Shown: positions 10,834 to 31,229 of the stretch, piece by piece
Position numbering within the stretch: position 1 is the stretch's first letter
Layout: each line of letters begins with the position of its first letter
Origin: Candidatus Iainarchaeum sp.
GTDB taxonomy: Archaea; Iainarchaeota; Iainarchaeia; Iainarchaeales; JACQJH01
Length of the DNA stretch: 32,000 nt
Reading direction: 5' to 3'
NCBI GenBank assembly: GCA_016205145.1
Contig: JACQJH010000002.1
Location: forward strand, 570,001-602,000
Notes under the pieces: model-generated
Databases searched by the model: none
Seen by the model: the letters and a program-made list of their open reading frames with translations, nothing else
Told to the model about the DNA's origin: nothing
Translations under genes and position numbers: made by a program

Positions 10834-10988
10834 GGGCCTGTAGTCTAACGGACAGGACGGCCGGCTTCGGACCGCTGCCCTTTTCTTTTTCTTCGCAAGA
10901 AAAAGAAAAAGTGCAGGGCGCCCAAAAAGAAAGAAACGGGCAAACGGGAAGAGACCGGCTGATGGGGGTTCGAATCCCTCCGGGCCCG
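10834..10988 (+). tRNA. tRNA-Arg (anticodon TCG) with 83-nt intron at 37/38
   Basis: Acceptor GGGCCTG/CGGGCCC, D stem GTCT/GGAC, anticodon stem GCCGG/CCGGC, loop CTTCGGA, T arm GGGGG-TTCGAAT-CCCTC, discriminator G. Intron is 10871..10953. BHB: central helix CTTC/GAAG flanked by 3-nt bulges GGA and AGA, outer helix CCG/CGG. Confidence 0.85.
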
Positions 10989-11121
10989 CTTTCGCGCGGG
11001 CGAAACGAAACCAAGGCGTCTTGCTTTTGCAAGACGCCGGGTAGGTATAAACATAAGTAGTGTTCCGCGAAGCGCGAACACCACGCACGGGGTTTGCAAG
11101 GGGCGAAAGCCCCTGCGTGCA
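10989..11121 (+). repeat. Hairpin cassette between two copies of the tRNA-Arg 3' end
   Basis: Contains GCCCGC-TTTCGC-GCGGGC (overlapping the tRNA end), gaaaccaagg, GGCGTCTTGC-tttt-GCAAGACGCC, GTGTTC(C)GCG-aag-CGCGAACAC, and ggggtttgcaaggggcgaaagcccctgcgtgc. The module order parallels the elements at 19239-19420 and 28616-28748. Confidence 0.6.
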
Positions 11122-11138
11122 AATCCCTCCGGGCCCGA
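11088..11138 (+). other. tRNA 3'-half-like segment (second copy of aatccctccgggcccg)
   Basis: The 16-mer at 10973-10988 recurs exactly at 11122-11137. Removing the 25-nt hairpin 11095-11119 would give CGGGG-TTCAAAT-CCCTC-CGGGCCC-G, a near-canonical T arm plus acceptor strand. Confidence 0.5.
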
Positions 11139-11139
11139 A

Positions 11140-11194
11140 CCGGCGGTTTCGTCCGCCGGGTCCGACGATGGGTACACCGCTGCGCGCTGTACCC
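11140..11194 (+). repeat. TTTCGT-loop hairpin plus GGGTACA/TGTACCC hairpin (trailer module)
   Basis: CCGGCGG-TTTCGT-CCGCCGG at 11140-11159, then GGGTACA...TGTACCC at 11170-11194. The loop of the second hairpin holds cgctgcgcgctgt, which also occurs at 15628-15640. Confidence 0.6.
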
Positions 11195-11251
11195 TTCTGC
11201 TTTATTTTCGGTATTAACTGTTTCAGGGCGTGCGACGCCTAAAGCCCCCGC

Positions 11252-15452: not shown

Positions 15453-15470
15453 GAAAGAGATTTGGTTCAA

Positions 15471-15675
15471 GGCGCTTTTAAGTTTCTTCGGAGGAGAGTG
15501 CGCTTCCCCTGACCGCCGTCATCGCCCGGCGGGTACGTTTTGTGGCATCCGCGCTGTTGCGGGATGCCACGCATGCTTTGCGGGGTTTGCAAGGGGTGCA
15601 ACCCCTGCACTCGCTTTGCTCGCATAGCGCTGCGCGCTGTTGCGCGATGGTTCGACGTGGCCTGAACTACGGCGC
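15471..15675. repeat. 205-nt non-coding block made of GC-rich hairpin modules
   Basis: Contains CCGCCG-tcatcgc-CGGCGG at 15513-15533, the 29-nt hairpin GTGGCATCCGCGCTGTTGCGGGATGCCAC at 15542-15570, ggggtttgcaaggggtgcaacccctgcac, ctcgctttgctc, and cgctgcgcgctgt. Each of these has a counterpart near a tRNA gene elsewhere in the window. Confidence 0.6.
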
Positions 15676-16347
15676 CTACACCAGCGTCGAAACAAACAGC
15701 ATCGTGACGCCGATTGCGGCTGTGATTGTCGTAACGATCAGCGAGTCGACGTCAAGCCGGCCCTGGAACTTCACTATCAGGAAAAAAAGCGCTGCCGAAG
15801 AAAAAATTATTCCGCCAAGAATGAGAAGGTATGAAATGAGCTTGTTCCTTGAACCGACGCCGCGCAGTTTCATTTCGTCTATGTCCTGCTGGGTGTTTGC
15901 GACGACCTCGCCGAGGTCGTTGAGCTTGTTGCGCACCTTGTCGCTCAGCTCGGTCGTCTTCATCGCGGTTTCCTCTATTTTCTGCCTGAAATTGTCGTTT
16001 TCCCTTTTCGTTTCCAGCCTGAGCTTTTCGATTTCTTCCTGCGCAGACTTCTGGACCTTTGAAAACGATTTCCCGCCCTGTTCCTCGGACTTTTCCTCGA
16101 CCGCCCTTGAAATGAAATCCTTCTGGTTTTCCAGTTCGTCGCGCACAATGCGCGAAATTTCGCCTTTCAGCAATGCAAAAGTGTCGGCCTGGCCGAGGAG
16201 CAGGAGCCTTTTCGCCTTTTCCGGTTCCACGCCAAGCTGCCTGAGCGTAGAAATTATCTTTTCCTCCGGCTCGTTCGCCTCGACCATTTCCTGGATTATG
16301 GCGATTATGCTGGCTTCCCTGTCGGTTTTCGGCTTTTTTTCGGGCAT
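15676..16347 (-). CDS. Coiled-coil protein with two C-terminal TM helices, hypothetical
   Basis: 223 aa, charged and heptad-rich in the middle, with C-terminus LISYLLILGGIIFSSAALFFLIV...LIVTTITAAIGVTMLFVSTLV. Its start overlaps the upstream gene stop (TAATG). Confidence 0.6.
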   Translation of the reverse strand: MPEKKPKTDREASIIAIIQEMVEANEPEEKIISTLRQLGVEPEKAKRLLLLGQADTFALLKGEISRIVRDELENQKDFISRAVEEKSEEQGGKSFSKVQKSAQEEIEKLRLETKRENDNFRQKIEETAMKTTELSDKVRNKLNDLGEVVANTQQDIDEMKLRGVGSRNKLISYLLILGGIIFSSAALFFLIVKFQGRLDVDSLIVTTITAAIGVTMLFVSTLV

Positions 16348-17021: not shown

Positions 17022-17777
17022 TTAAAACCTTATTTTGCCCGACTGCCACTGCATTACCAGAAACTTTGCCGCCGCAACAGAGTCGGGCCTGCCGCCGGAA
17101 AGCAGAAAGCCCTTTTTCAGGGCAAACGCCTCAAGCAATGCCTCGGCATCCGTGCCCTGCAGGCCGAAACTTTTTTCAAAAAAATCCGGCCGGGATGAAA
17201 CAATAAATTCTGCAAGCTGCACTCCCGCGGTTTCGGGATCGGAAAGCTGTTCCGCGGTTTTCGCGTTCACGAGCATGAGCCTGAACTCGTCGTTTTCGTC
17301 GAACGGGATTGTGCCGGGCGAATCAAACAGCAGCAGGTTTTTCGAGACGCGGACAAGCCTTTCGCCGCGCGTGAAACCGGCTTTTTTGGAAGTGCCGGCA
17401 ACCCTCCTGCCGACCAGAATGTTGATAAGCGAACTCTTGCCGGTGTTCGGGTAGCCGACGACAGCGCACACGCACCGCTTTTTTTCAGCCAGGGCGAAAA
17501 GCCTGTTCCTGAGCAGGGAGATACCCTGCCGCTTTTTCGCGGAAACGAAAAAAGTTTCCGCTTCCTGTGACAGGAGTTTTTTCTGCGCTTCCGCATGGCG
17601 CTTCGAGGCAAAGTCGGATTTATTTATCACGAACAAAAGCCTTTTGCCGGAAGCCCGCACTTTTTCCTCGAGGTCCCTGTTCCGTGTCAGTTCCGGAAAC
17701 CTTGCATCCAAAACTTCGAGAATTATGTCTGACGATTCGACAACCTTTGAAAGCCTCGCAAAAAAGCCGCCCTTCAT
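17022..17777 (-). CDS. Circularly permuted ribosome-biogenesis GTPase (YlqF/RbgA-MJ1464 family)
   Basis: G4 NKSD precedes G1 GYPNTGKSS and G3 DSPG, the permuted order of this family. ATG at 17777. Confidence 0.8.
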   Translation of the reverse strand: MKGGFFARLSKVVESSDIILEVLDARFPELTRNRDLEEKVRASGKRLLFVINKSDFASKRHAEAQKKLLSQEAETFFVSAKKRQGISLLRNRLFALAEKKRCVCAVVGYPNTGKSSLINILVGRRVAGTSKKAGFTRGERLVRVSKNLLLFDSPGTIPFDENDEFRLMLVNAKTAEQLSDPETAGVQLAEFIVSSRPDFFEKSFGLQGTDAEALLEAFALKKGFLLSGGRPDSVAAAKFLVMQWQSGKIRF

Positions 17778-17837
17778 AAAAAAACCCGCCGGCAAAAAAC
17801 ACTCAATGCAACCATCAGCAAAATTAAGATATCCTGC

Positions 17838-18191
17838 TCAGAGTAGTTTCAGGCTCGAAGTGAACCTGTCGATTTCGGAATCCGGAGCCGGGCCGATTGC
17901 AATGCACGTCGCTTCCCCCGCTTCAATCTGCGTCCTTCCCGCATCCTTTATCAGCGCGCACGGCAAAAGCTTTTTCGCGGACTCGAACAGCTCAAGCAGT
18001 TCATTTCTGCTTCCAACTTTGAGCACGACCTTCGCCTGGCCGGAAGCCTTCCACTCCTCGACCCAGCCCGGCTTTTTTGCCGAAGTTTTTTCGACTGCCT
18101 CAAGGCTTGCGTGCGCTACTTGGGCACAAGTTTTCCCGACACCAAGTTTCAAATCTTTTCTTACAACAATTGCCTGTTTATATTCAGTCAA
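17838..18191 (-). CDS. pth2: Archaeal-type peptidyl-tRNA hydrolase (Pth2)
   Basis: 117 aa (KQAIVVRKDLKLGVGKTCAQVAHASL...DAGRTQIEAGEATCIAIGP). The TTG start at 18191 lies inside the 3' end of the upstream endonuclease gene. Confidence 0.9.
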   Translation of the reverse strand: MTEYKQAIVVRKDLKLGVGKTCAQVAHASLEAVEKTSAKKPGWVEEWKASGQAKVVLKVGSRNELLELFESAKKLLPCALIKDAGRTQIEAGEATCIAIGPAPDSEIDRFTSSLKLL

Positions 18192-19110
18192 TTTTTTCGC
18201 CCCTTTTTCTTAAATGGTCTTTGAACCGCAAATATTTCCTATCTAAACATAAGCCATTACAATTTTTATACATCCATCTGCAAAGAATGCGTGCATTATC
18301 ACCGTAAAATTCAATTTGCCACGTTCTGTCTGACGACATTTTCACATTACTTGTTCTTATTTTAATAATTTTAACCATTGTTTCCTTTAAATCTTTAATA
18401 AATTTTTCATTGCCAACAATCTTTATTTTGATTGTGTTTGGTTGGTTGAAATGAATACTTCCGTCCCCATCAAAATAACCTCTTACAAAATTAGCGAGGT
18501 ATTTTTGGGGAATTTTTGGCAGCCTTATTTTTTTTGCTTTTTTTGGCCCACACCCAAGAGCTATTAAATCGGAACACATTTTTTTGCTATGCACTGAGAA
18601 GCTCAGGTAATCTCCGTGAATTTTTATTCCATGGTTACTTTTTAGGGCTTTTTTAATTTTTTCCACGATTTTTAAGTCTTTTTTATTTAGGTGCAGGCGA
18701 AATGTTCTTTTGTCAGCGGTGACATTTCCATCGCTAAACATCCAACCCAAAACATATGCAGATTCGCGAGTCCAGACGGAAAAGAAACTTTCGTCGACTT
18801 TGTTATATCTTTTTCTAATTGGCCTCGATATTCTCAATTTGTGTGCTTTATGATACACTGAAGATTTGGTTCTTCTAGGAAATAATATGTGTATGTTGTT
18901 TTTTCCGGCGTAGTGTTCCTTCAGCATCTGAAGTTCTTTTTGTGCCCAGAAAAGACGGGGCGTTGTCAACCCAAATGCATGGAGCTTTCGCTGAATTGTG
19001 GTTTTGCTCACATTATTTTCTTTCGCTATTTCCAAGTAATTCTTGTGTTTAAGCTGCTCTTCCAAATATTCTTTTGAATTATAAAATTTCACAATAAGAT
19101 ACTGTGTCAA
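18184..19110 (-). CDS. Free-standing LAGLIDADG homing endonuclease with N-terminal HTH region
   Basis: Two LAGLIDADG motifs (YVLGWMFSDGNV and FVRGYFDGDGSI). N-terminal HTH-like YLEIAKENNVSKTTIQRKLHAFGL. Lys/Ile/Asn-rich composition. Confidence 0.85.
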   Translation of the reverse strand: MTQYLIVKFYNSKEYLEEQLKHKNYLEIAKENNVSKTTIQRKLHAFGLTTPRLFWAQKELQMLKEHYAGKNNIHILFPRRTKSSVYHKAHKLRISRPIRKRYNKVDESFFSVWTRESAYVLGWMFSDGNVTADKRTFRLHLNKKDLKIVEKIKKALKSNHGIKIHGDYLSFSVHSKKMCSDLIALGCGPKKAKKIRLPKIPQKYLANFVRGYFDGDGSIHFNQPNTIKIKIVGNEKFIKDLKETMVKIIKIRTSNVKMSSDRTWQIEFYGDNARILCRWMYKNCNGLCLDRKYLRFKDHLRKRGEKID

Positions 19111-19238
19111 TCAGTTTAAACTATGGTATAATCTTTCCTTTACCCAAAATTGAAGCCCGGGATAATAATGTCTAAGCCGCAGTTTAAAAACCTGCATTTG
19201 TGCATGGCGGAATCGTCAAACACGAAAAAAGAATGAGA
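18184..19238 (-). mobile_element. AT-rich island carrying the homing endonuclease
   Basis: Hand counts of five 60-nt lines inside give 18-47% G+C (about one third on average), against more than 50% in flanking lines. The island is bounded by pth2 and by the hairpin element starting at 19239. Confidence 0.5.
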
Positions 19239-19420
19239 TTACTCGGCCTTTCACAACAGTGATGCCCCAGAATCCAAAGATTCTGGGCACGTCGCAAAAT
19301 CCAAGATTTTGCAACGAAGGCCTTAGTTTCGGACCCGGCGTTGCGAGCAACGCGAGCCAGCGGCACTTTACGTGCCGCGCGCACCAGACGGGCGTGACGT
19401 CTCGGCGGACGAAACCGCCG
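19239..19420 (-). repeat. Composite hairpin element (longest copy of the family)
   Basis: Read on the minus strand: CGGCGG-TTTCGT-CCGCCG, agacgtcacgcccgtct, CGGCAC-gtaaa-GTGCCG, GCGTTGC-tc-GCAACGC, then an 88-nt two-hairpin module (19248-19335), then gccgagtaa. Confidence 0.7.
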
Positions 19421-19422
19421 GC

Positions 19423-19893
19423 TTAAGCCACGTTCGGCTGCGCTTCGGCTTCGGTTGACAGCTGCTGGATTACCGGCCGCATGATTTCTGAATCGTCTTC
19501 CGCGGCAGGCTGGTCTGAAGCCTGTTCTGATTCGGCTTCAGCCGGTTCCGGCTGCTCGAAGCCTGGCTGTACGCCTTTCAGGCGCAAAGTCTTTGTGATG
19601 CCATTCGAACCCCACAAATAAGTGAAAGAAGTGCCCTCGTTTTTTGTTATCCAAACGCGCCTGTTGCCCGGATGTTCGTGGCCTTTCAAAGTCAGAAGGT
19701 TGCTGAATTCAACCAGCGCCTTTGAATCGTCAAGCTTTACAAGAGTGAAAACTGACGGCGACCCGTCTACTCCCGGCAAAAGTTCGCCGAAAGCCTTGCC
19801 CTGCTCGACTTCGACCTCGTTCTCGTCAACCTTCTTGTCGAAAGGCGGGCTCCACCTGCTCTGCACGTTCCTAAGCTCAAAAATCGCTTTCAT
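19423..19893 (-). CDS. Hypothetical protein with beta-rich N-domain and acidic disordered C-terminal tail
   Basis: 156 aa with C-terminus EQPEPAEAESEQASDQPAAEDDSEIM. No motif recognised. Divergent from nurA. Confidence 0.55.
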   Translation of the reverse strand: MKAIFELRNVQSRWSPPFDKKVDENEVEVEQGKAFGELLPGVDGSPSVFTLVKLDDSKALVEFSNLLTLKGHEHPGNRRVWITKNEGTSFTYLWGSNGITKTLRLKGVQPGFEQPEPAEAESEQASDQPAAEDDSEIMRPVIQQLSTEAEAQPNVA

Positions 19894-20035
19894 GATCTCA
19901 CCAAAAAAAGTTGTAAGAAGATAAGTCGTTTCTGGTTAAAAATCTTTGTCTGGAAAAACCGGTTTGCCGGCCAAGCATTTCACGGGAAACCCGCCTGCCC
20001 AGCATTTTAAAGCAGTTTTTCCCATTGTTTTGCCG

Positions 20036-21139
20036 ATGACAATCAATTCGGTTATCGACGAGGCCGTTTCCGGCATACATGCAATGGATGCAAGGCGGAA
20101 AATCTTTTCAGAAAAGCTGCTGCTTTTGAAGGATGAAGACCTTGCCCCGCTGAACGACAGGGAATTGCTCGAAGACAGGCTCATCCTTCCGGTGCGCAAT
20201 GCGCAGGCGTTTTCGAAAAAGGTTGCGGGCGTGGATTCGGGGTTTGCGGACAAGCGCCTGTTCTCGTTCGACCTGATTCTTGTGCGCGCGGTCGCGGTCT
20301 GCTTTGCATATGACAACGGAAAGCTCGCTTCCGCGCAATATTTGCCAAATTATTTTTCTTTTCCGACGCCGTTGCTGAACAATGCCGCGCTGGACAACGA
20401 CGAGTTCCAGGTCAGCAGGTCGTTGCAGAGGCTGCTCGAGGAAGTGAGGCTTGCGAAAAGGGCGATTGCGGAATTCAGGCCGGACTATTGTTTTCTGGAT
20501 GGCAGCGTGATTCCGCAGTACGTCGAGTCTCGGCAGGACTCGCAGGTGAAGGCATTTTACCATGAAACCCTGGCGGAGTTCCAGCAGTTGTATTCCGAAG
20601 CAGAGAAAGCGGGCTGCCAGATTGTCGGCTGCGTCGAGGACAGCCGCGGCAGCCAGCTGCGCACAATCCTGCAGAAAAGCGTCCTGCCGAAAGTGCCGGT
20701 GTGCAATCCCGCTCTGCTGGATGAAACATATGATTCCGTGCTATTGGATTACCTTTTGAAAAAAGGCGAGCGGAGCTTTGCATTCAATTATTCGGCGCAC
20801 GCAAAAGAGCACCCCATCCTGAAGGATTTCGACGAGAAGTGGGCGAAGCAGGTGCACGTTTTTTACCTGAAGCCTGTTGACTTCGACAGGCCGCTGAGAG
20901 TGGAGTTCTTGTCGAACAAAAAAGGGCCTGAATTCGCAGGGCACGTTGATGAGATTGCGCAGGCCGTGCGCTTCCTCTCCGGCTTCCACAAGGAATACGC
21001 TTATCCAAGCGTCCTGATAGAAGCCGATTTCAGGGCGCGCCTGAACAACGCTGAAATCGAAACCGTTTACGAAAAAATCGTGGACAAGCTCAGCAGGCAC
21101 TTGAAACTCAGGCTGAGAAGGAACAGCAGGCCATTTTGA
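20036..21139 (+). CDS. nurA: NurA 5'-3' nuclease
   Basis: VAGVDSGF and CFLDGSVIPQ acidic motifs, suitable size, and position upstream of herA. ATG at 20036 (MTINSVIDEA); the listed start 19946 is TTG. Confidence 0.7.
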   Translation: MTINSVIDEAVSGIHAMDARRKIFSEKLLLLKDEDLAPLNDRELLEDRLILPVRNAQAFSKKVAGVDSGFADKRLFSFDLILVRAVAVCFAYDNGKLASAQYLPNYFSFPTPLLNNAALDNDEFQVSRSLQRLLEEVRLAKRAIAEFRPDYCFLDGSVIPQYVESRQDSQVKAFYHETLAEFQQLYSEAEKAGCQIVGCVEDSRGSQLRTILQKSVLPKVPVCNPALLDETYDSVLLDYLLKKGERSFAFNYSAHAKEHPILKDFDEKWAKQVHVFYLKPVDFDRPLRVEFLSNKKGPEFAGHVDEIAQAVRFLSGFHKEYAYPSVLIEADFRARLNNAEIETVYEKIVDKLSRHLKLRLRRNSRPF

Positions 21140-21437
21140 CAAAGTGATAAAAATGCCGAACAGAATACACCAAACTCAGCCGCGGAGAAGAGTGGAAAGC
21201 CTGCGGAGAAGCGCGTCAAGGTTTTCCAGAAACCTTGCCAATGTTCCGCCGGAAAAAAGGGCGGCAGTGACAAAAAGATATTGGAAAAACAAGGAAAGCG
21301 GGCAGTGAAAATGCGCGGTAAAAACAACTGGTTTCGTGCGGCCGGCATGGGTTGCGCTTTATGGCAACGAGGATTTTATTAAACGTTTCAGGGAAAAGTT
21401 GAAAGGAAAAGCAAAATCGGAAAAGAAGTGAAAAAGC

Positions 21438-22979
21438 GTGGCTGATGAAAGGGAAATCGGAACCGTGATTTCAAGCTTTGAGGGCCCGTCGCCTAACCTT
21501 GTCGATTTTGTCGTCACGCACGGAATCGTGCATCGCGGCCAGTTTGTCGAACTCGATTACAGCGAAGGAACGATGGTCTGCCTTGTCAACGACGTGATAA
21601 AGACAAACCGCTATTTCGAGCGAGCCGACTCGGTCAAGGAATTTGAAAGCTCGGGCACGAAAATGCTTGAACAGTTTCCGATCGGGGAATGGGAATACCT
21701 TCTCGCAAAGACACGGCCATTGGGGGTTTTCGCGGACGGAATGATCAAAAGGCCGAGTTATCCGCCAAGCCCAGGCACTAAAGTCAGGATTTCTGACAGG
21801 GAAAATCTCAAAAAATTCCTCGGGTTTGATTTGCAGTCCGGCCTTGAAATCGGTTCGGTGGAATACCACGACCTGCCCGTCAAGCTGAATCTGAGCGGCC
21901 TCCTCAAAAAGCACCTTGCTGTTTTGGCCATGAGCGGCAGCGGCAAGTCGTATGGTGTTTCCGTCCTGCTCGAGGAACTGCTTTCGCGCAAAAAAGAATT
22001 CGGCCGCATCGCGACAATCGTCATGGACCCGCACGGCGAATACAGCTCGTTTGCCGAGCCCGTGAAAGAAAAGGGCTTTGAGGATTTTTCCTCAGTGACC
22101 AGGCTTGTGAAAGCCAGGAACATCCAGATTGGCGTGCCGAGGCTGGACGTGAACCTGATTTCAGGAATCATTCCCGGTTTGAGCCACGCGCAAAAACGCG
22201 ACCTTGGAAGGGTTTTGTCCCAGCTCAAGCAGGAAATGCGCGATGGCCTCGGCCCATTCGACCTTGCAATGGTGCGCTTGAAAATTGCCAGGGACAGTGA
22301 AATAAAGGAAGCCACGAAAGCCGCACTCGTAGGCTGGGTTGACGGTTTGGAAGATTTGCATCTTTTCGGCAAAACCGACAATCCCGGAGTGGCAGAGCTT
22401 GCCAAACCCGGAACGCTTACAATCGTTGACCTGTCAGACATTGTTGACCTGAAAAAAAAGCAGGTCATTGTCGGCTATTTTGCGAGAAAGCTTTTCCACG
22501 AAAGGCGCGAAAAAGCCATTCCGCCGTTTTTGTTCATTCTGGAAGAAGCGCACCAATTCTGTCCGGAAAAGGCTTCGGAGGAAAAGGCTGTAGCGCGCGG
22601 CATCATCCGAACCATTGCACGCGAAGGAAGGAAATTCGGCGCTTCGCTGTGCCTGATTTCGCAGAGGCCCGTGCAATTGGACACTACCACGCTGTCGCAG
22701 TGCAACACTCACATAATTTTGCGCATAACCAACCCATATGATTTGAAGCACATCGGCGAAACCTCCGAGGGCATCGACGCCAGAACCCAGTCAATGATTT
22801 CCTCTCTCAGGGTCGGTGAAGGGATTATCGTCGGCGAAGCAGTCAGCTTTCCGGTTTTCTTCAAGTTCCGGAAACGCAGGAGCGCGCCAAGCCGGCACGA
22901 GTTTTCATTGGAGCAGGCCGCAATCGACTTTGAAAACAGCGAAGGCAAAAACCGCGAGGAAGCGGAAAGCTTTTTGTAA
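21438..22979 (+). CDS. herA: HerA bipolar DNA helicase / FtsK-HerA superfamily ATPase
   Basis: N-terminal barrel EIGTVISSFEGPSPNLVDFVV, Walker A AMSGSGKSYGVS, Walker B LFILEEAHQF, and arginine-finger region LISQRP. GTG start at 21438. Confidence 0.9.
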   Translation: MADEREIGTVISSFEGPSPNLVDFVVTHGIVHRGQFVELDYSEGTMVCLVNDVIKTNRYFERADSVKEFESSGTKMLEQFPIGEWEYLLAKTRPLGVFADGMIKRPSYPPSPGTKVRISDRENLKKFLGFDLQSGLEIGSVEYHDLPVKLNLSGLLKKHLAVLAMSGSGKSYGVSVLLEELLSRKKEFGRIATIVMDPHGEYSSFAEPVKEKGFEDFSSVTRLVKARNIQIGVPRLDVNLISGIIPGLSHAQKRDLGRVLSQLKQEMRDGLGPFDLAMVRLKIARDSEIKEATKAALVGWVDGLEDLHLFGKTDNPGVAELAKPGTLTIVDLSDIVDLKKKQVIVGYFARKLFHERREKAIPPFLFILEEAHQFCPEKASEEKAVARGIIRTIAREGRKFGASLCLISQRPVQLDTTTLSQCNTHIILRITNPYDLKHIGETSEGIDARTQSMISSLRVGEGIIVGEAVSFPVFFKFRKRRSAPSRHEFSLEQAAIDFENSEGKNREEAESFL

Positions 22980-22984
22980 AAAAA

Positions 22985-23084
22985 AAGAGTAAGCTTACTC
23001 GGCGTTGCGAGCAACGCGAGCCAGCGGCACTTTACGTGCCGCACGCACTAGACGGGCGTGACGTCTCGGCGGACGAAACCGCCG
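22985..23084 (-). repeat. Hairpin element, short copy (lacks the two-hairpin module)
   Basis: 23000-23084 matches 19336-19420 at 83 of 85 positions. It is preceded by the palindrome GAGTAAGCTTACTC. Confidence 0.75.
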
Positions 23085-23086
23085 CC

Positions 23087-23122
23087 GGGAAAACTTTTGA
23101 TAAAAGTTTTATCAAAAGTCAC
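23087..23122. repeat. 36-nt AT-rich palindromic motif downstream of tRNA-Gly(GCC)
   Basis: gggaaaaCTTTTGATAAAAgTTTTATCAAAAGtcac. Its reverse complement recurs at 30833-30868 with 35 of 36 identical. Confidence 0.75.
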
Positions 23123-23187
23123 CCGGCCGGCAGAGGGGCTGAGCCTTGCGAAGCCCCTCAACGTCGCACCAACCGGGCGATGACGGT

Positions 23188-23345
23188 TGCGACCACCGGG
23201 AGTCGAACCCGGACCTGAACCTGATTGCAGCCCTGCGCCTCCAAAAAAGAAAATTTTTTTCTTTTGTGGGAAAACACCTTTTTCTTTTTCAAAAAAGAAA
23301 AAGGGCCCTGGCAAGGTCCAATCCTAACCGCTAGACCATGGTCGC
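23188..23345 (-). tRNA. tRNA-Gly (anticodon GCC) with 86-nt intron at 37/38
   Basis: Acceptor GCGACCA/TGGTCGC, D stem GTCT/GGAT, anticodon stem GGACC/GGTTC, spliced loop TTGCCAA, T arm CCGGG-TTCGACT-CCCGG, discriminator A. Intron is 23223..23308. BHB: central helix TTGC/GCAA, bulges CAG and TCA, outer helix GGCCC/GGGCT. Confidence 0.8.
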
Positions 23346-23353
23346 TTGCAGGA

Positions 23354-28615: not shown

Positions 28616-28748
28616 AGCAGCCGATTTCGTCCGCAGCCGTCACGTCCGGCGGGTACGAACCAAGGCTTATCATGGCAAAATCGCGATTTTGCCATGTGCC
28701 CGGAATCTTGGGATTCCGGTGCATGCTGCTGCAATAAGCCGAGTAAGC
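28616..28748 (+). repeat. Hairpin element directly abutting the tRNA-Val 3' end
   Basis: ccgatttcgtccgc, ccgtcacgtccggcgggtacg, then gaaccaagg, hairpin CATGGCAAAATC/GATTTTGCCATG (28671-28696), hairpin TGCCCGGAATC/GATTCCGG(T)GCA (28697-28723), and gccgagtaagc. Colinear with the minus strand of 19239-19420. Confidence 0.7.
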
Positions 28749-28809
28749 AGTACCAAAAATTAGATTGCAAGAGGCCGAAGCCCCCCCCATTGCATTTGAA
28801 ACAAACCGC

Positions 28810-29847: not shown

Positions 29848-30588
29848 TTATTTAATCTTAATCTTTGCCGAAATTTTTTTCCAGACCTCATCCGACACTT
29901 CTGCAATGGACTTGATTTTCTTGCCGGACTCCATGCAGTCCACTACGAGCCAGTTTTCCTTTTCAGCAAGGCGCAGGTAAATCCTGCGGACGCGCTCCAT
30001 GTACGAAAAGTTCAGTTCATGCAAGTCCTTTTTCTTGTCCTTCATCAGCTTCCTCGACATAGAAGCCGGAACGTCAAGCAGTACAGTGAGGTCGGGCTTG
30101 GGAAACCTGCCTTCCACGTTTTTCGCCCATTCAATGAATTCCGCCTGCTTTTTTTCGTCAGTGTACTTTGCGCTCTGGTACGCGAGGTTCGAGGCCACAA
30201 ACCTGTCCAGGACGACCATTTTTCCCGCTTCGAGTTCCTTGCGGATTTTTGCGGACGCGGAATACTTGTCAATAGAGTAAAGCATCATGCACACTTCCGG
30301 CGCCATCCTGTAAGGGTTGCCGAAGCCGCCATTAAGGTATTTTGAAATCAGCGAGCCGAAAAATGTCTTGTAGCGCGGAAACGCCATGAAAACGCCTGGA
30401 ACGTTTTTTTTGCGCAGGCGCCTGAAAAAAAGCCTCGACTGCGAGGACTTCCCCGAACCGTCAATTCCCTCGAAAACTATGAGTTTGCCCTTCAAAACCA
30501 GCCACCGGAACGGGAAGATAACTGACAAAGAGGTTAATAAAATTTTCCGCCGAAAAAGTTGTTGGCGTTCCGGCTGGCTGGGTTCCAT
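29848..30588 (-). CDS. tmk: Thymidylate kinase
   Basis: P-loop FEGIDGSGKS, DRF motif and lid region. ATG 30588 gives an atypical 31-aa N-terminal extension. TTG 30495 (KGKLIVFEGIDGSGKS), with ttttattaa about 45 nt upstream, is the more typical start. Confidence 0.8.
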   Translation of the reverse strand: MEPSQPERQQLFRRKILLTSLSVIFPFRWLVLKGKLIVFEGIDGSGKSSQSRLFFRRLRKKNVPGVFMAFPRYKTFFGSLISKYLNGGFGNPYRMAPEVCMMLYSIDKYSASAKIRKELEAGKMVVLDRFVASNLAYQSAKYTDEKKQAEFIEWAKNVEGRFPKPDLTVLLDVPASMSRKLMKDKKKDLHELNFSYMERVRRIYLRLAEKENWLVVDCMESGKKIKSIAEVSDEVWKKISAKIKIK

Positions 30589-30632
30589 CAGAACCTACAC
30601 CGGCCGGAAAGCGTTCCGAGCGAAGCGAGGCA

Positions 30633-30686
30633 GCCCGATGAAGCGAAGCGAATCGGGCGTCGGACTCGGCGGACGAAATCGCCGAG
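30633..30686 (+). repeat. Two GC hairpins forming the 5' flank of tRNA-Gly(TCC)
   Basis: GCCCGAT-gaagcgaagcga-ATCGGGC at 30633-30658 and CTCGGCG-gacgaaat-CGCCGAG at 30665-30686. The second is the reverse-orientation version of the TTTCGT-loop hairpin, and its last base is tRNA position 1. Confidence 0.65.
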
Positions 30687-30796
30687 CGCCTGTAGCGTAG
30701 TGGTAGCGTTCGACCCTTCCAAAACTTTTTTAGAAAAAAAGTTTGCAAAAAAGTCGAGGTGAGGTCGCGGCCCGGGTTCGACTCCCGGCGGGCGCA
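30686..30796 (+). tRNA. tRNA-Gly (anticodon TCC) with 40-nt intron at 37/38
   Basis: Acceptor GCGCCTG/CGGGCGC, D stem GCGT/GCGT (wobbles), anticodon stem CGACC/GGTCG, spliced loop CTTCCAA, T arm CCGGG-TTCGACT-CCCGG, discriminator A. Intron is 30722..30761, with central helix CTTC/GAGG and 3' bulge TGA. The 5' side is less regular, so this is a relaxed BHB. Confidence 0.8.
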
Positions 30797-30832: not shown

Positions 30833-30868
30833 GTGAATTTTGATAAAACTTTTATCAAAAGTTTTCCC
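30833..30868. repeat. 36-nt AT-rich palindromic motif downstream of tRNA-Gly(TCC)
   Basis: gtgaaTTTTGATAAAAcTTTTATCAAAAgttttccc, the reverse complement of 23087-23122 at 35 of 36 positions. It may double as the TATA region for rnp4 (ATG 30897). Confidence 0.75.
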
Positions 30869-30896
30869 GACGGGCGCAACTAAAAAATTGGTTCTG

Positions 30897-31229
30897 ATGG
30901 CTTCGAAGAAATTGTCCGTGCAAAAAATCGCGTTGGAGCGCATTTACCGCCTGTTCGAGCTGGCGGAAAAGGAACTGGAAAAGCCTTCCGGCGGAAGGTC
31001 GAAAAGGTATGTGCAACTGGCATTGAAAATCCGGGACAGGAACAGGGCAAGGCTGCCGGTTGAATTGAAGGCAAGGTTCTGCAAAAAATGCAAGGCATTT
31101 CTGATGCCGGGAAAAAACTGCACTGTGCGGGTTTCAGGAAAAATGGTTGTTGTTTCATGCCTCGGCTGTGGTAGCATAAAAAAGATGGGCGCCAAGGAAA
31201 AGAAGGCAAAAGTGGTGGAACGGAGTTGA
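30897..31229 (+). CDS. rnp4: RNase P protein component 4 (Rpp21/Rnp4)
   Basis: IALERIYRLFELAEKE helical N-domain, then Zn ribbon FCKKCKAFL...VSCLGCGS. Start at MASKKL (ATG 30897). Confidence 0.85.
   Translation: MASKKLSVQKIALERIYRLFELAEKELEKPSGGRSKRYVQLALKIRDRNRARLPVELKARFCKKCKAFLMPGKNCTVRVSGKMVVVSCLGCGSIKKMGAKEKKAKVVERS

Follow-up and report, generated by a model that had tools for sequence, protein, structure and literature searches.

Two near-identical copies of an intergenic repeat

Does near-identity between two stretches of noncoding DNA reflect recent copying, or selection that has held both in place? This question is raised by the stretch of DNA analyzed here (32,000 nt, hereafter the window), in which a first-pass annotation had pointed to an 85-nt repeat with two mismatches. 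Two explanations had been offered, recent copying of a small mobile or recombining element and strong selection on a structured RNA. A repeat search recovered this sequence as the inner part of a longer direct repeat of 88 nt, with copies that lie 3664 nt apart, are 97% identical, and differ at repeat positions 3, 47, and 53 (Table 1). Self-BLAST of the repeat aligned 85 nt at 97.6% identity (E = 1e-37). Both copies are intergenic, as had been stated: copy 1 is 2 nt past the stop codon of a 156-aa ORF, and copy 2 lies between the convergent herA (stop at 22979) and tRNA-Gly(GCC), ~100 nt beyond the tRNA 3' end and without overlapping it. The 88-mer is not a novel stand-alone RNA; it is a REP/BIME-type element in a DPANN archaeon. 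It is probably a composite member of a lineage-specific, modular family of REP/BIME-like hairpin cassettes, and was recently copied, possibly by recombination.

An archaeal host is indicated by genes for HerA, NurA, Rad50, CCA-adding enzyme, TYW3, Rpp21, and PTH2 within the window, and by tRNA introns of 40-86 nt. The best HerA matches were 65-70% identical, several of them to organisms named Candidatus Diapherotrites or Iainarchaeum. Because these matches are no closer, the window derives from a DPANN archaeon without a close sequenced representative. Judged by its gene content, the DNA is that of a Diapherotrites/Iainarchaeota-like organism.

The repeat could have arisen as an assembly duplication, a concern that had been raised for it. 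This was ruled out by the three differences between the copies, by an independent assembly, and by synteny in a close relative. Logan contig L001 (run SRR12113384) is 100% identical to window positions 19391-23029. Its ends correspond to repeat position 59 in copy 1 and position 33 in copy 2, exactly where 31-mers lose uniqueness. In addition, adjacency of the two copy 1 flanks is confirmed in the close relative L065. The same contig ends, copy differences, and synteny led us to reject a 3.66-kb circle.

Homology between the two loci runs past the reported ends of the repeat. After a 97-nt indel, GCCGAGTAATCTCATTC followed by T6 (19247-19225, minus) matches GCCGAGTAAGCTTACTC followed by T9 (23003-22978, minus), such that both copies finish with GCCGAGTAA(G/T)C and an oligo-T run. 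The additional segment of copy 1 contains, in order, AACTAAGGC, a hairpin formed by GCAAAATC/GATTTTGC, a hairpin formed by GTGCCCAGAATC/GATTCTGGGGCAT, the end motif GCCGAGTAATC, and the T6 run. As copy 2 does not have the 97-nt segment, the two visible copies need not be related as direct donor and recipient. On its other side, copy 2 is abutted by an AT-rich palindrome, the second copy of which is downstream of tRNA-Gly(TCC). T4 runs are present on either strand of this palindrome, which could terminate transcription in both directions.

Table 1. Coordinates of the repeat copies, related cassettes, and adjoining features in the window
Feature	Position	Strand	Composition or context
Cassette A	11140..11224	+	D2, tag GGTCCGACG, hairpin GGGTACA/TGTACCC, oligo-T
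Cassette B, D1-led	15513..15610	+	Inversion junction; CCGCCG/CGGCGG, GTACG, hairpin GTGGCATCC/GGATGCCAC, GGGGTTTGCAAGGGG module
Extension of copy 1 cassette	19225..19332	minus	Homologue of tRNA-Val trailer; missing from copy 2 as 97-nt indel
Copy 1 of 88-nt element	19333..19420	minus	D2, D1-like + GGTGCG, two further hairpins
156-aa ORF	19423-19893	minus	Stop 2 nt from copy 1
Copy 2 end	22978..23003	minus	Motif GCCGAGTAAGC, small hairpin GAGTAAGCTTACTC, T9 run; overlaps herA stop codon
Copy 2 of 88-nt element	22997..23084	minus	Distal downstream region of tRNA-Gly(GCC), convergent with herA
AT-rich palindrome, 41 nt	23082..23122		Abuts copy 2; 95% identical second copy at 30833-30873
D1-led cassette directly after tRNA-Gly(GCC)	23129..23189	minus	CAACCG/CGGTTG, tag GGTGCGACG, hairpin GAGGGGCT/AGCCCCTC, TGCC
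tRNA-Gly(GCC) with 86-nt intron	23188..23345	minus	
tRNA-Val 3' trailer	28616..28760	+	Degenerate D2 then D1, as ordered in the 88-mer
Third full-length member, diverged	30600..30685	minus	D2 abuts tRNA-Gly(TCC) 5' end; arms CCCGAT/ATCGGG; conserved CTGCCTCGCTTCGCTCGGAACGC

Hairpin modules and their arrangement

Folding of the 88-mer confirmed all three hairpins recognized by the first-pass annotation and revealed a fourth, AGACG/CGTCT, that it had missed. Also missed was the informative strand, which is the minus strand. Read in this direction, copy 1 is composed of D2 (CGGCGG/CCGCCG), a D1-like hairpin (AGACG/CGTCT) with GGTGCG, GCGGCAC/GTGCCGC, and GCGTTG/CAACGC. Folds of the 88-mer alone gave modest z-scores of -1.2 to -2.7; the extended units are strongly structured by prediction (z = -5.9 and -6.6).

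The window contains four instances of the terminal hairpin CGGCGGACGAAACCGCCG, where 0.07 would be expected by chance. Beyond the two copies, it is found at 30667-30684, 1 nt upstream of tRNA-Gly(TCC), and in inverted orientation at 11141-11158. The inverted instance is preceded, at a distance of 3 nt, by a 21-nt duplicate of the 3' end of tRNA-Arg, and cassette A likewise starts 3 nt past this duplicate. We considered whether the tRNA-like 3' end at 11117-11137 could belong to a split or permuted tRNA. It has no T-arm pairing and was therefore treated as a duplicate remnant.

Comparison of tRNA flanks identified a shared unit, here called the D module. It consists of a 5-7 bp hairpin with the loop TTTCGT (D2) or TCAYCGYC (D1), together with the unpaired tag GGTSCGACG (reverse complement CGTCGSACC). 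An HMM of the module found nine instances in the 32-kb window, all intergenic. The stems of D modules vary by compensatory changes (CGGCGG/CCGCCG, CCGCCG/CGGCGG, CAACCG/CGGTTG, AGACG/CGTCT, AAGCGG/CCGCTT, and AGCCGG/CCGGCT). After the tag comes a second hairpin, with arms that are unrelated among units yet always pair. Ten of the eleven units folded individually adopted two hairpins and an unpaired tag; in the remaining one, the tRNA-Val trailer, pairing of the D region is different. Covariation was read from these per-unit folds and from stem tables. The covariation term from RNAalifold on a MAFFT alignment of five units was uninformative, because MAFFT leaves the variable central hairpins out of register. 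A functional RNA motif would account for covarying stems around a conserved loop and tag just as well as a REP-like repeat would.

The first-pass annotation had also missed that the repeat has further relatives: a third, diverged copy is present in the window, and the repeat belongs to a modular family tied to tRNA flanks. The 88-mer aligns end to end with window positions 30685-30600 and with contig L057 from a related archaeon. All three share the D2 hairpin, the tag region, a central hairpin that covaries (GCGGCAC/GTGCCGC, CCCGAT/ATCGGG, and ACTATGC/GCATAGT, respectively), and a conserved CTGSCTCGCKTYGCTCGSAASGC. The first 40 nt of the 88-mer (minus strand) and the 97-nt extension of copy 1 both match the tRNA-Val trailer, which continues after D1 with the two hairpins of that extension and a GCCGAGTAAGC end. 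Other members of the family are only ~65-85% identical. The third hairpin of the 88-mer is not kept as a hairpin in the diverged members, which counts against a REP-like reading.

Across these units, the cassette layout is a D hairpin, an unpaired tag, a variable second hairpin, and often GCCGAGTAAGC with oligo-T. Distal oligo-T runs were found in copy 1 (T6, 19230-19225, minus), copy 2 (T9, 22986-22978, minus), cassette A (CTTTATTTTCGG), and the L065 cassette (CTGCTTTTTTCG). The runs of copies 1 and 2 have the five or more T residues at the 3' end of the unit that are taken to mark archaeal oligo-T terminators, so their use as terminators is predicted. No terminal T-run is present in the tRNA-Val, L058, and 30600-30685 units or in the D1 unit directly after tRNA-Gly(GCC), a second feature that sits uneasily with a REP-like reading.

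Four cassettes are co-oriented with an upstream gene and end in oligo-T: cassette A, which follows tRNA-Arg; copy 1, which follows the 156-aa gene; copy 2, distal to tRNA-Gly(GCC); and the L065 cassette. Because of these four ends, and because copy 1 stands between a stop codon and a promoter, we propose that the minus strand of the 88-mer may be transcribed as part of a trailer or 3' UTR. More generally, transcripts of an upstream gene would run into a co-oriented cassette, which would form a structured 3' trailer or 3' UTR with its end at the oligo-T run. They could thereby serve as terminator-proximal, exonuclease-resistant ends, as has been proposed for REP/BIME sequences.

Association with tRNA genes

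Most of the cassettes lie at a tRNA gene end, their D hairpin turned towards the tRNA, but they also occur directly downstream of a protein gene. In five of seven tRNA-flanking cases, counting the duplicated tRNA-Arg 3' end, the D hairpin faces the tRNA end from within 0-4 nt, on either side. The two exceptions are the intact D1 of tRNA-Val and the 3' D1 of the L058 tRNA-His, each ~18-20 nt out; L058 also carries a module 3-4 nt upstream of its tRNA-His. So tight and polar an association with tRNA ends is atypical of REPs, and a tRNA-specific function or targeting is possible.

Lineage restriction and a cassette swap at the copy 1 site

A JGI scan was performed with a degenerate 27-nt pattern that spans all four terminal-hairpin sites, among contigs that do not include the organism of the window. 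It returned two contigs of related archaea, L057 and L058. Two further contigs, L065 and L066, were found through a 97% identical LAGLIDADG protein; they are short and come from other metagenomes. D modules are present in all four. The family has members in three other metagenomes. Among L051-L055 and L059-L064, relatives at 60-70% HerA identity (~190 kb), no strict D-type module was found; the tRNA-Arg trailer of L051/L052 contains a very weak D-HMM site (E = 4.2). The orthologous tRNA-Arg trailers of these relatives are short and AT-rich. Since distant relatives have no modules and such trailers, we conclude that the family is lineage-specific and that it is no ancient tRNA signal.

L065 and L066 share 90-95% nucleotide identity with window positions 17497-20414, as well as the gene order nurA, 156-aa gene, LAGLIDADG, pth2. 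Between the stop codon of the 156-aa gene and the pth2 promoter, however, they hold a different cassette of ~80 nt in place of the 88-mer. This cassette is composed of D2 with two compensatory stem changes, the tag, a hairpin, and CTGCTTTTTTCG, and it is 83% identical to the tRNA-Arg trailer cassette of the window (cassette A, 11144-11224). At the copy 1 site, the cassette of each lineage is therefore closer to a paralogue elsewhere than to its positional orthologue. From the sequences compared, such a pattern is what ectopic conversion or mobile cassettes would be expected to leave, unlike a conserved RNA gene.

Because the orthologous site holds a different cassette, the gain or swap of copy 1 was a recent event, and the 97% identity between the copies dates from after two lineages that now differ by 5-10% had separated. 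Of the two original suggestions, recent copying of a small mobile or recombining element is thus the best explanation. The other, strong selection on a novel structured RNA, is not supported, given the missing 88-mer at the orthologous site and family members that are only ~65-85% identical. The copying would have been intragenomic and would postdate the split from the 90-95% identical relative. Its route may have been transposition, or else ectopic gene conversion or recombination for which the shared D2 hairpin and the end motif with its T-run served as anchors. Recombination on D2 and the end motif could likewise spread or homogenize cassettes.

The copy 1 site is also close to an intact two-motif LAGLIDADG ORF (~220 nt from copy 1 and ~115 nt from the end of the extended cassette). 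This ORF behaves as a mobile insertion in the 5' end of pth2, as indicated by its sporadic distribution, its low GC content, and a pth2 5' remnant upstream. The pth2 promoter, TTTTTAAA, lies at ~19188, which is 33 nt before the ATG of the pth2 remnant in L065, so copy 1 is exactly between a stop codon and the next promoter. Copy 1 is outside the endonuclease insertion itself, because the pth2 promoter and the pth2 5' remnant separate it from the LAGLIDADG ORF.

D modules at the junctions of a 7.5-kb inversion

Seven relatives (L051, L053, L059, L061, L062, L063, and L068) share the gene order [Toprim, Hjc]-[222-aa gene ... GTPase, pth2 ... nurA, herA]-[~500-aa gene, rpb6, rad50]. Relative to all seven, the middle block of the window (~15.7-23.0 kb) is inverted, an inversion of 7.5 kb. 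D1 modules are present at both junctions in inverted orientation (15516-15537 and 23165-23186), and copy 2 is at the herA-side junction. Over 42 nt, the part of cassette B that now follows the 15.5-kb module shares 90% identity with a true tRNA trailer of L058. This match suggests that the sequence of cassette B was probably the original trailer of tRNA-Gly(GCC). The same modules that build the cassettes would thus have served as substrates for the inversion, and the junction sequences suggest that D modules act as recombination substrates.

Searches for known families, further copies, and coding capacity

The first-pass annotation had recognized no known RNA family in the repeat, and Rfam agrees: at the gathering threshold, three tRNAs and nothing else were identified in the whole window. 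At E <= 10, the best matches to the two copies were RtT (16.4 bits; threshold 45) and MH_s10 (23.2 bits; threshold 81), and the tRNA-Arg flank returned tRNAs and sub-threshold noise only. Four sub-patterns of 19-27 nt gave no exact match in GTDB (one 19-mer), JGI (one 27-nt pattern), or IMG/VR. Nor did five patterns scanned against IMG/VR, or BLAST searches of phage and plasmid collections, yield anything relevant.

Matches to bare hairpins were not relevant. A 19-mer of hairpin 2, scanned against GTDB genomes that do not include the organism itself, gave 18 loci, all unrelated. Eleven of these are a bacterial REP-like hairpin from two Vulcanimicrobiota MAGs (ten contigs and one), the 19-mer being common by chance. 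The 31 bare-hairpin matches in IMG/VR were largely a recurring phage coding sequence, with the remainder scattered in unrelated contexts. A protein-coding reading was likewise set aside. Two frames are open through both copies, but their translations are Arg-rich and without credible starts. In one minus-strand frame both internal substitutions are silent; it has no start and is an Arg-rich hairpin translation. Four peptides from open frames of the repeat had no matches among 5.8 billion proteins. Pfam scans of 30 ORFs of the 32-kb window detected no transposase or RAYT (IS200/IS605-like Y1 transposase) domain, so that a partner enzyme of the kind known for REPs is missing from the window.

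Alternative explanations

The position of the cassettes invites tRNA-centered accounts, and a tRNA-specific targeting or processing role for the D cassettes seems to us unlikely or, at best, rather unlikely. The more favorable estimate applies to the proposal that they are small archaeal elements of a new kind that target tRNA ends and are swapped whole by an unknown recombinase or transposase, or else that leader-trailer pairing frees promoterless tRNAs of DPANN archaea from long transcripts. Discrete units that run from D hairpin to oligo-T, with fixed polarity at tRNA boundaries and an occasional position after a stop codon, are what such targeting would look like. If cassettes are swappable whole between loci, the recombinase or transposase would be structure-specific. 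We consider it unlikely that the cassettes are functional pre-tRNA flank signals, in which inverted D modules on the two sides of a tRNA would pair through their tags (CGUCGGACC with GGUSCGACG), giving a stem of leader and trailer that directs excision of the tRNA or insulates it. On this view, the 88-mer would be a displaced or duplicated piece of flank held similar by gene conversion. Placement of D hairpins within 0-4 nt of tRNA ends on both sides and covariation of the D stems agree with such signals, but copy 1 and cassette B adjoin no tRNA, and the cassette at one site differs among close relatives. The leader and trailer tags of the L058 tRNA-His form a 10/11-bp outer helix in the minimum-free-energy fold, although the z-score of this precursor fold is just -1.25. 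An upstream module is found at two tRNAs, Gly(TCC) and L058 His; both are without a TATA-like box within ~30 nt and must therefore be cut from longer transcripts. No such module precedes tRNA-Gly(GCC), tRNA-Val, or tRNA-Arg, the promoters of which are AT-rich and ordinary. Genes for tRNA processing are numerous nearby, with Rpp21 directly after tRNA-Gly(TCC), but no bulge-helix-bulge motif was seen. Finally, orthologous tRNA-Arg trailers in L061, L062, and L063 are entirely without modules, as is the equivalent tRNA of L059 (ARAGORN "SeC(tca)").

The remaining accounts concern the repeat itself. That the 88-mer is an independent small structured RNA gene, with two paralogues under purifying selection, is quite unlikely. 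Its four stable hairpins, an A/T-rich stretch upstream (plus strand), and a T-run downstream (minus strand) are features of such a gene, which could be new given that no known family matches. However, the 88-mer is missing at the orthologous copy 1 site in both L065 and L066, and nothing promoter-like precedes copy 1 on the minus strand, the ORF stop being 2 nt away. All three substitutions between the copies fall in unpaired linkers, but this is expected by chance in ~9% of cases. The z-scores of the 88-mer alone are modest, hairpin 1 is not kept in diverged members, and the sub-pattern scans and phage and plasmid searches were empty. Very unlikely is the installation of copy 1 by double-strand-break repair linked to the LAGLIDADG homing endonuclease, through co-conversion of flanks or an ectopic repair template. 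The intact ORF nearby, its behavior as a mobile insertion in pth2, and the variable cassette at exactly this site would suit it. Against it, the endonuclease cassette is 95-97% identical in the window and L065 and, being common to both, predates the cassette swap, and D modules are missing from the homologous endonuclease loci of L067 and L068. Such repair would in any case trigger the repeat-family explanation and not replace it. Highly improbable, in our judgment, is a reading of the repeats as att-like termini of an integrated or excisable segment of 3.66 kb, or as traces left by tRNA-targeting integrative elements. The repeats are direct, one adjoins a tRNA gene, the 21-nt tRNA-Arg 3' duplicate attests to integration-like or duplication events at tRNA flanks, and the Logan contig is exactly one repeat-to-repeat unit. 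Yet the cargo would be the 156-aa gene, nurA, and herA, core genes with conserved synteny in all relatives, with no integrase among them. Moreover, the repeat lies past the tRNA 3' end and does not overlap it, the L065 chromosome is continuous through the copy 1 site without the repeat, and the ends of the Logan contig do not overlap each other.

Significance and comparison with known systems

To our knowledge, almost nothing is known of noncoding DNA in DPANN genomes, which are very small and compact. In the window, the cassettes make up most of the DNA that flanks tRNA genes, differ between near-identical strains, and sit at inversion junctions. Our data suggest that REP-like repeats are active drivers of rearrangement in reduced genomes and probably shape transcript 3' ends. 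For annotation, they caution that near-identical intergenic repeats in MAGs should not be taken as new RNA genes. The cassettes also explain why short-read assemblies break at such sites. If their polarity at tRNA ends reflects a targeting or processing mechanism, the cassettes would offer an entry point to tRNA gene expression in uncultured organisms.

Pneumococcal BOX elements (boxA-boxB-boxC) and enterobacterial BIMEs are modular repeats. Like them, the cassettes combine a small set of modules in variable ways, fold stably, and are probably co-transcribed with their neighbors. The set comprises D2, D1, the central hairpin, the GGGGTTTGCAAGGGG module, the GCAAAATC and GTGCCC hairpins, and the GCCGAGTAAGC end. 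Unlike BOX and BIME elements, the cassettes prefer tRNA flanks, belong to another domain of hosts, and consist of unrelated module sequences. Their small size, noncoding and structured nature, dispersal, and variable presence among close relatives resemble MITEs, including archaeal ones. Unlike MITEs, they have no target-site duplication (flanks ending ..GGACC versus ..TTACT on one side and beginning GCTTAA versus CCGGGA on the other), terminal inverted similarity is weak (~10/13 nt, CGGCGTTGCG... versus ...CGAAACCGCCG), and no related transposase end is known. The conserved synteny of the cargo and the ~100 nt that separate the repeat from the tRNA also differ from an att-bounded integrated element.

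Two systems are comparable in their relation to stable RNA genes. RtT RNA, from the trailer of the E. coli tyrT operon (RF00391), is likewise a repeated structured sequence in a tRNA 3' trailer, and it was the sole Rfam model to match copy 1 (E = 1.1, at the sub-threshold score given above). The match spans two generic hairpins only, RtT is bacterial, and there is no homology. Archaeal rRNA and tRNA processing stems with bulge-helix-bulge motifs (PMC4090602, PMC7714728) are pairable inverted flanks of a stable RNA gene, as seen for the L058 tRNA-His. In contrast to such stems, no bulge-helix-bulge was recognized here, most tRNAs are flanked on one side, and modules also occur away from tRNAs.

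For CGTC-tagged REPs, which are transcribed and can occur as dimers, a position downstream of an ORF is the rule, and a dedicated transposase is lacking (Di Nocera et al. 2013, PMC3733652). The cassettes likewise have no adjacent transposase. Members of this REP superfamily bear a conserved unpaired tetranucleotide, GTAG or CGTC, at one end, to which the unpaired tag of the cassettes (CGTCGSACC as reverse complement) may correspond. The reverse complement of the tag starts with CGTC in six of the nine window modules and in L057, L058, and L065, a resemblance that is possibly coincidental. CGTC REPs have an 8-9 bp stem that opens with A/T pairs, a 4-5 nt loop, and a CCA tail (PMC3733652), whereas the cassettes have GC-rich stems of 5-7 bp without A/T first pairs, loops of 6-8 nt, and no CCA tail. 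Because the stem, loop, and tail differ in this way, we do not assign the cassettes to the bacterial CGTC REPs. Their tag is also distinct from the REP tetranucleotide, being 9 nt long and placed between two hairpins, and they depart from bacterial REPs in their archaeal (DPANN) host, strong polar association with tRNA ends, and absence of sequence homology.

With REP and BIME sequences as a broader class, the cassettes have much in common. A hairpin of 18-22 nt with a 9-nt tag places each D module within the 20-40 bp of an extragenic imperfect palindrome that defines a REP. The cassettes are short, GC-rich, imperfect palindromes of intergenic DNA. They occur in either orientation and as mosaic clusters, their usual place being downstream of a gene or between two convergent ones, and they share with REPs and BIMEs compensatory stem changes, lineage-specific presence, and involvement in rearrangement.

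Homing endonucleases and gene order

The LAGLIDADG ORF of the window overlaps the start of pth2; it behaves like a homing endonuclease of the free-standing type that has inserted in the 5' end of that gene. Its GC content is 38%, against 52% for the host. Just upstream lies an N-terminal coding remnant of pth2, which in the closely related contig L065 encodes MDFKQAIVVR and in the window has suffered a 23-nt deletion. When the locus was compared among relatives, the ORF was absent from L051, L053, L054, L059, L061, and L062, present in the close relatives L065 and L066, and represented in L067 and L068 by homologues of 58-61% identity at the same position as in the window. In these last two, the GC content of the homologue was again below that of the host.

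Homing endonucleases appear to be common across the clade. Several relatives encode HerA homologues of ~850 aa (P0006, P0040, P0042, P0048, P0064, and P0078); in P0006, P0042, P0048, and P0078 the annotation assigns the additional stretch to a LAGLIDADG_3 domain, as would fit an intein. The HerA encoded by the window has no intein. LAGLIDADG inteins are also present in NifU of L051 and L054.

Gene order in this region has also changed. A block of ~7.5 kb, with the 223-aa gene at one end and herA at the other, has the opposite orientation in the window to that in seven relatives, and D-type modules (a short hairpin plus an unpaired tag) lie at both junctions. The gene neighboring the transglutaminase gene is tRNA-Val in L067 and tRNA-Gly(GCC) in the window, a second case of rearrangement in the flank of a tRNA gene. 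In close and in more distant relatives, an insertion of two genes resembling a toxin-antitoxin pair separates nurA from the homologue of the 156-aa gene; this insertion is missing from the window.

Coordinates of features (window positions unless a contig is named)
Feature	Position	Strand	Details
tRNA-Arg	10834-10989		83-nt intron
tRNA-Arg 3' end	10968-10988		21 nt
Copy of tRNA-Arg 3' end	11117-11137		19/21 identical
Inversion junction regions	15470-15680; 22980-23350		D-type hairpin modules at both, in inverted orientation
LAGLIDADG ORF	18184-19110	minus	Two motifs, both intact
pth2 N-terminal remnant	19133-19165
AT-rich palindrome (GGGAAAACTTTTGATAAAAGTTTTATCAAAAGT...)	23082-23122; 30833-30873		41 nt, two copies, 95% identity
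tRNA-Gly(GCC)	23188-23345		86-nt intron
AT-rich box TTAATAAAATTTT	about 30527-30545
tmk start to tRNA-Gly(TCC)	30588-30686		97 nt
tRNA-Gly(TCC)	30686-30796		40-nt intron
Rpp21	30840-31229		RNase P subunit
Two-gene insertion	L065 438-986; L068 4733-5399		DUF2283 + 78-aa or 107-aa ORF

tRNA genes and their flanks

Three of the four tRNA genes in the window contain long introns, at the canonical position or adjoining it (ARAGORN: intron starts 37-38), and AT-rich palindromes such as CTTTTTCTTTTTTGAAAAAGAAAAAG occur inside these introns. Default ARAGORN detected tRNA-Val alone in the window, and tRNA-Gly(GCC) was missed by Rfam at the gathering threshold.

The 3' end of tRNA-Arg recurs 128 nt farther downstream, and the array of hairpins bracketed in this way contains the GGGGTTTGCAAGGGG module. 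The duplicate represents either the footprint of an integration-type event or the leftover of a tandem tRNA copy. Each tRNA-Gly gene is followed downstream by one copy of the 41-nt palindrome. This palindrome has T4 runs on both strands and may serve to terminate transcription in both directions or to bind a protein.

The interval from the start of tmk, as annotated, to tRNA-Gly(TCC) contains no TATA-like box. The nearest AT-rich box falls within the 5' end of tmk in its present annotation, so the start of this gene has probably been misplaced, and tRNA-Gly(TCC) would have a leader of ~115 nt. Rpp21 directly follows this tRNA gene.

Comparison with a bacterial REP family

The genome scan with the 19-mer of hairpin 2, part of the 88-nt direct repeat, led to loci L033-L049 in the Vulcanimicrobiota MAGs JAFANK01 and JAFAKE01. 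This exact 19-mer is contained in a REP-like hairpin, GGGGCGGCACTTTACGTGCCGCCC, which occurs on at least 10 contigs of one bacterial MAG and often follows ATGTAGGG. The match is by chance: the bacterial hairpin represents an abundant GTAG-type REP family, unrelated to the archaeal repeat.
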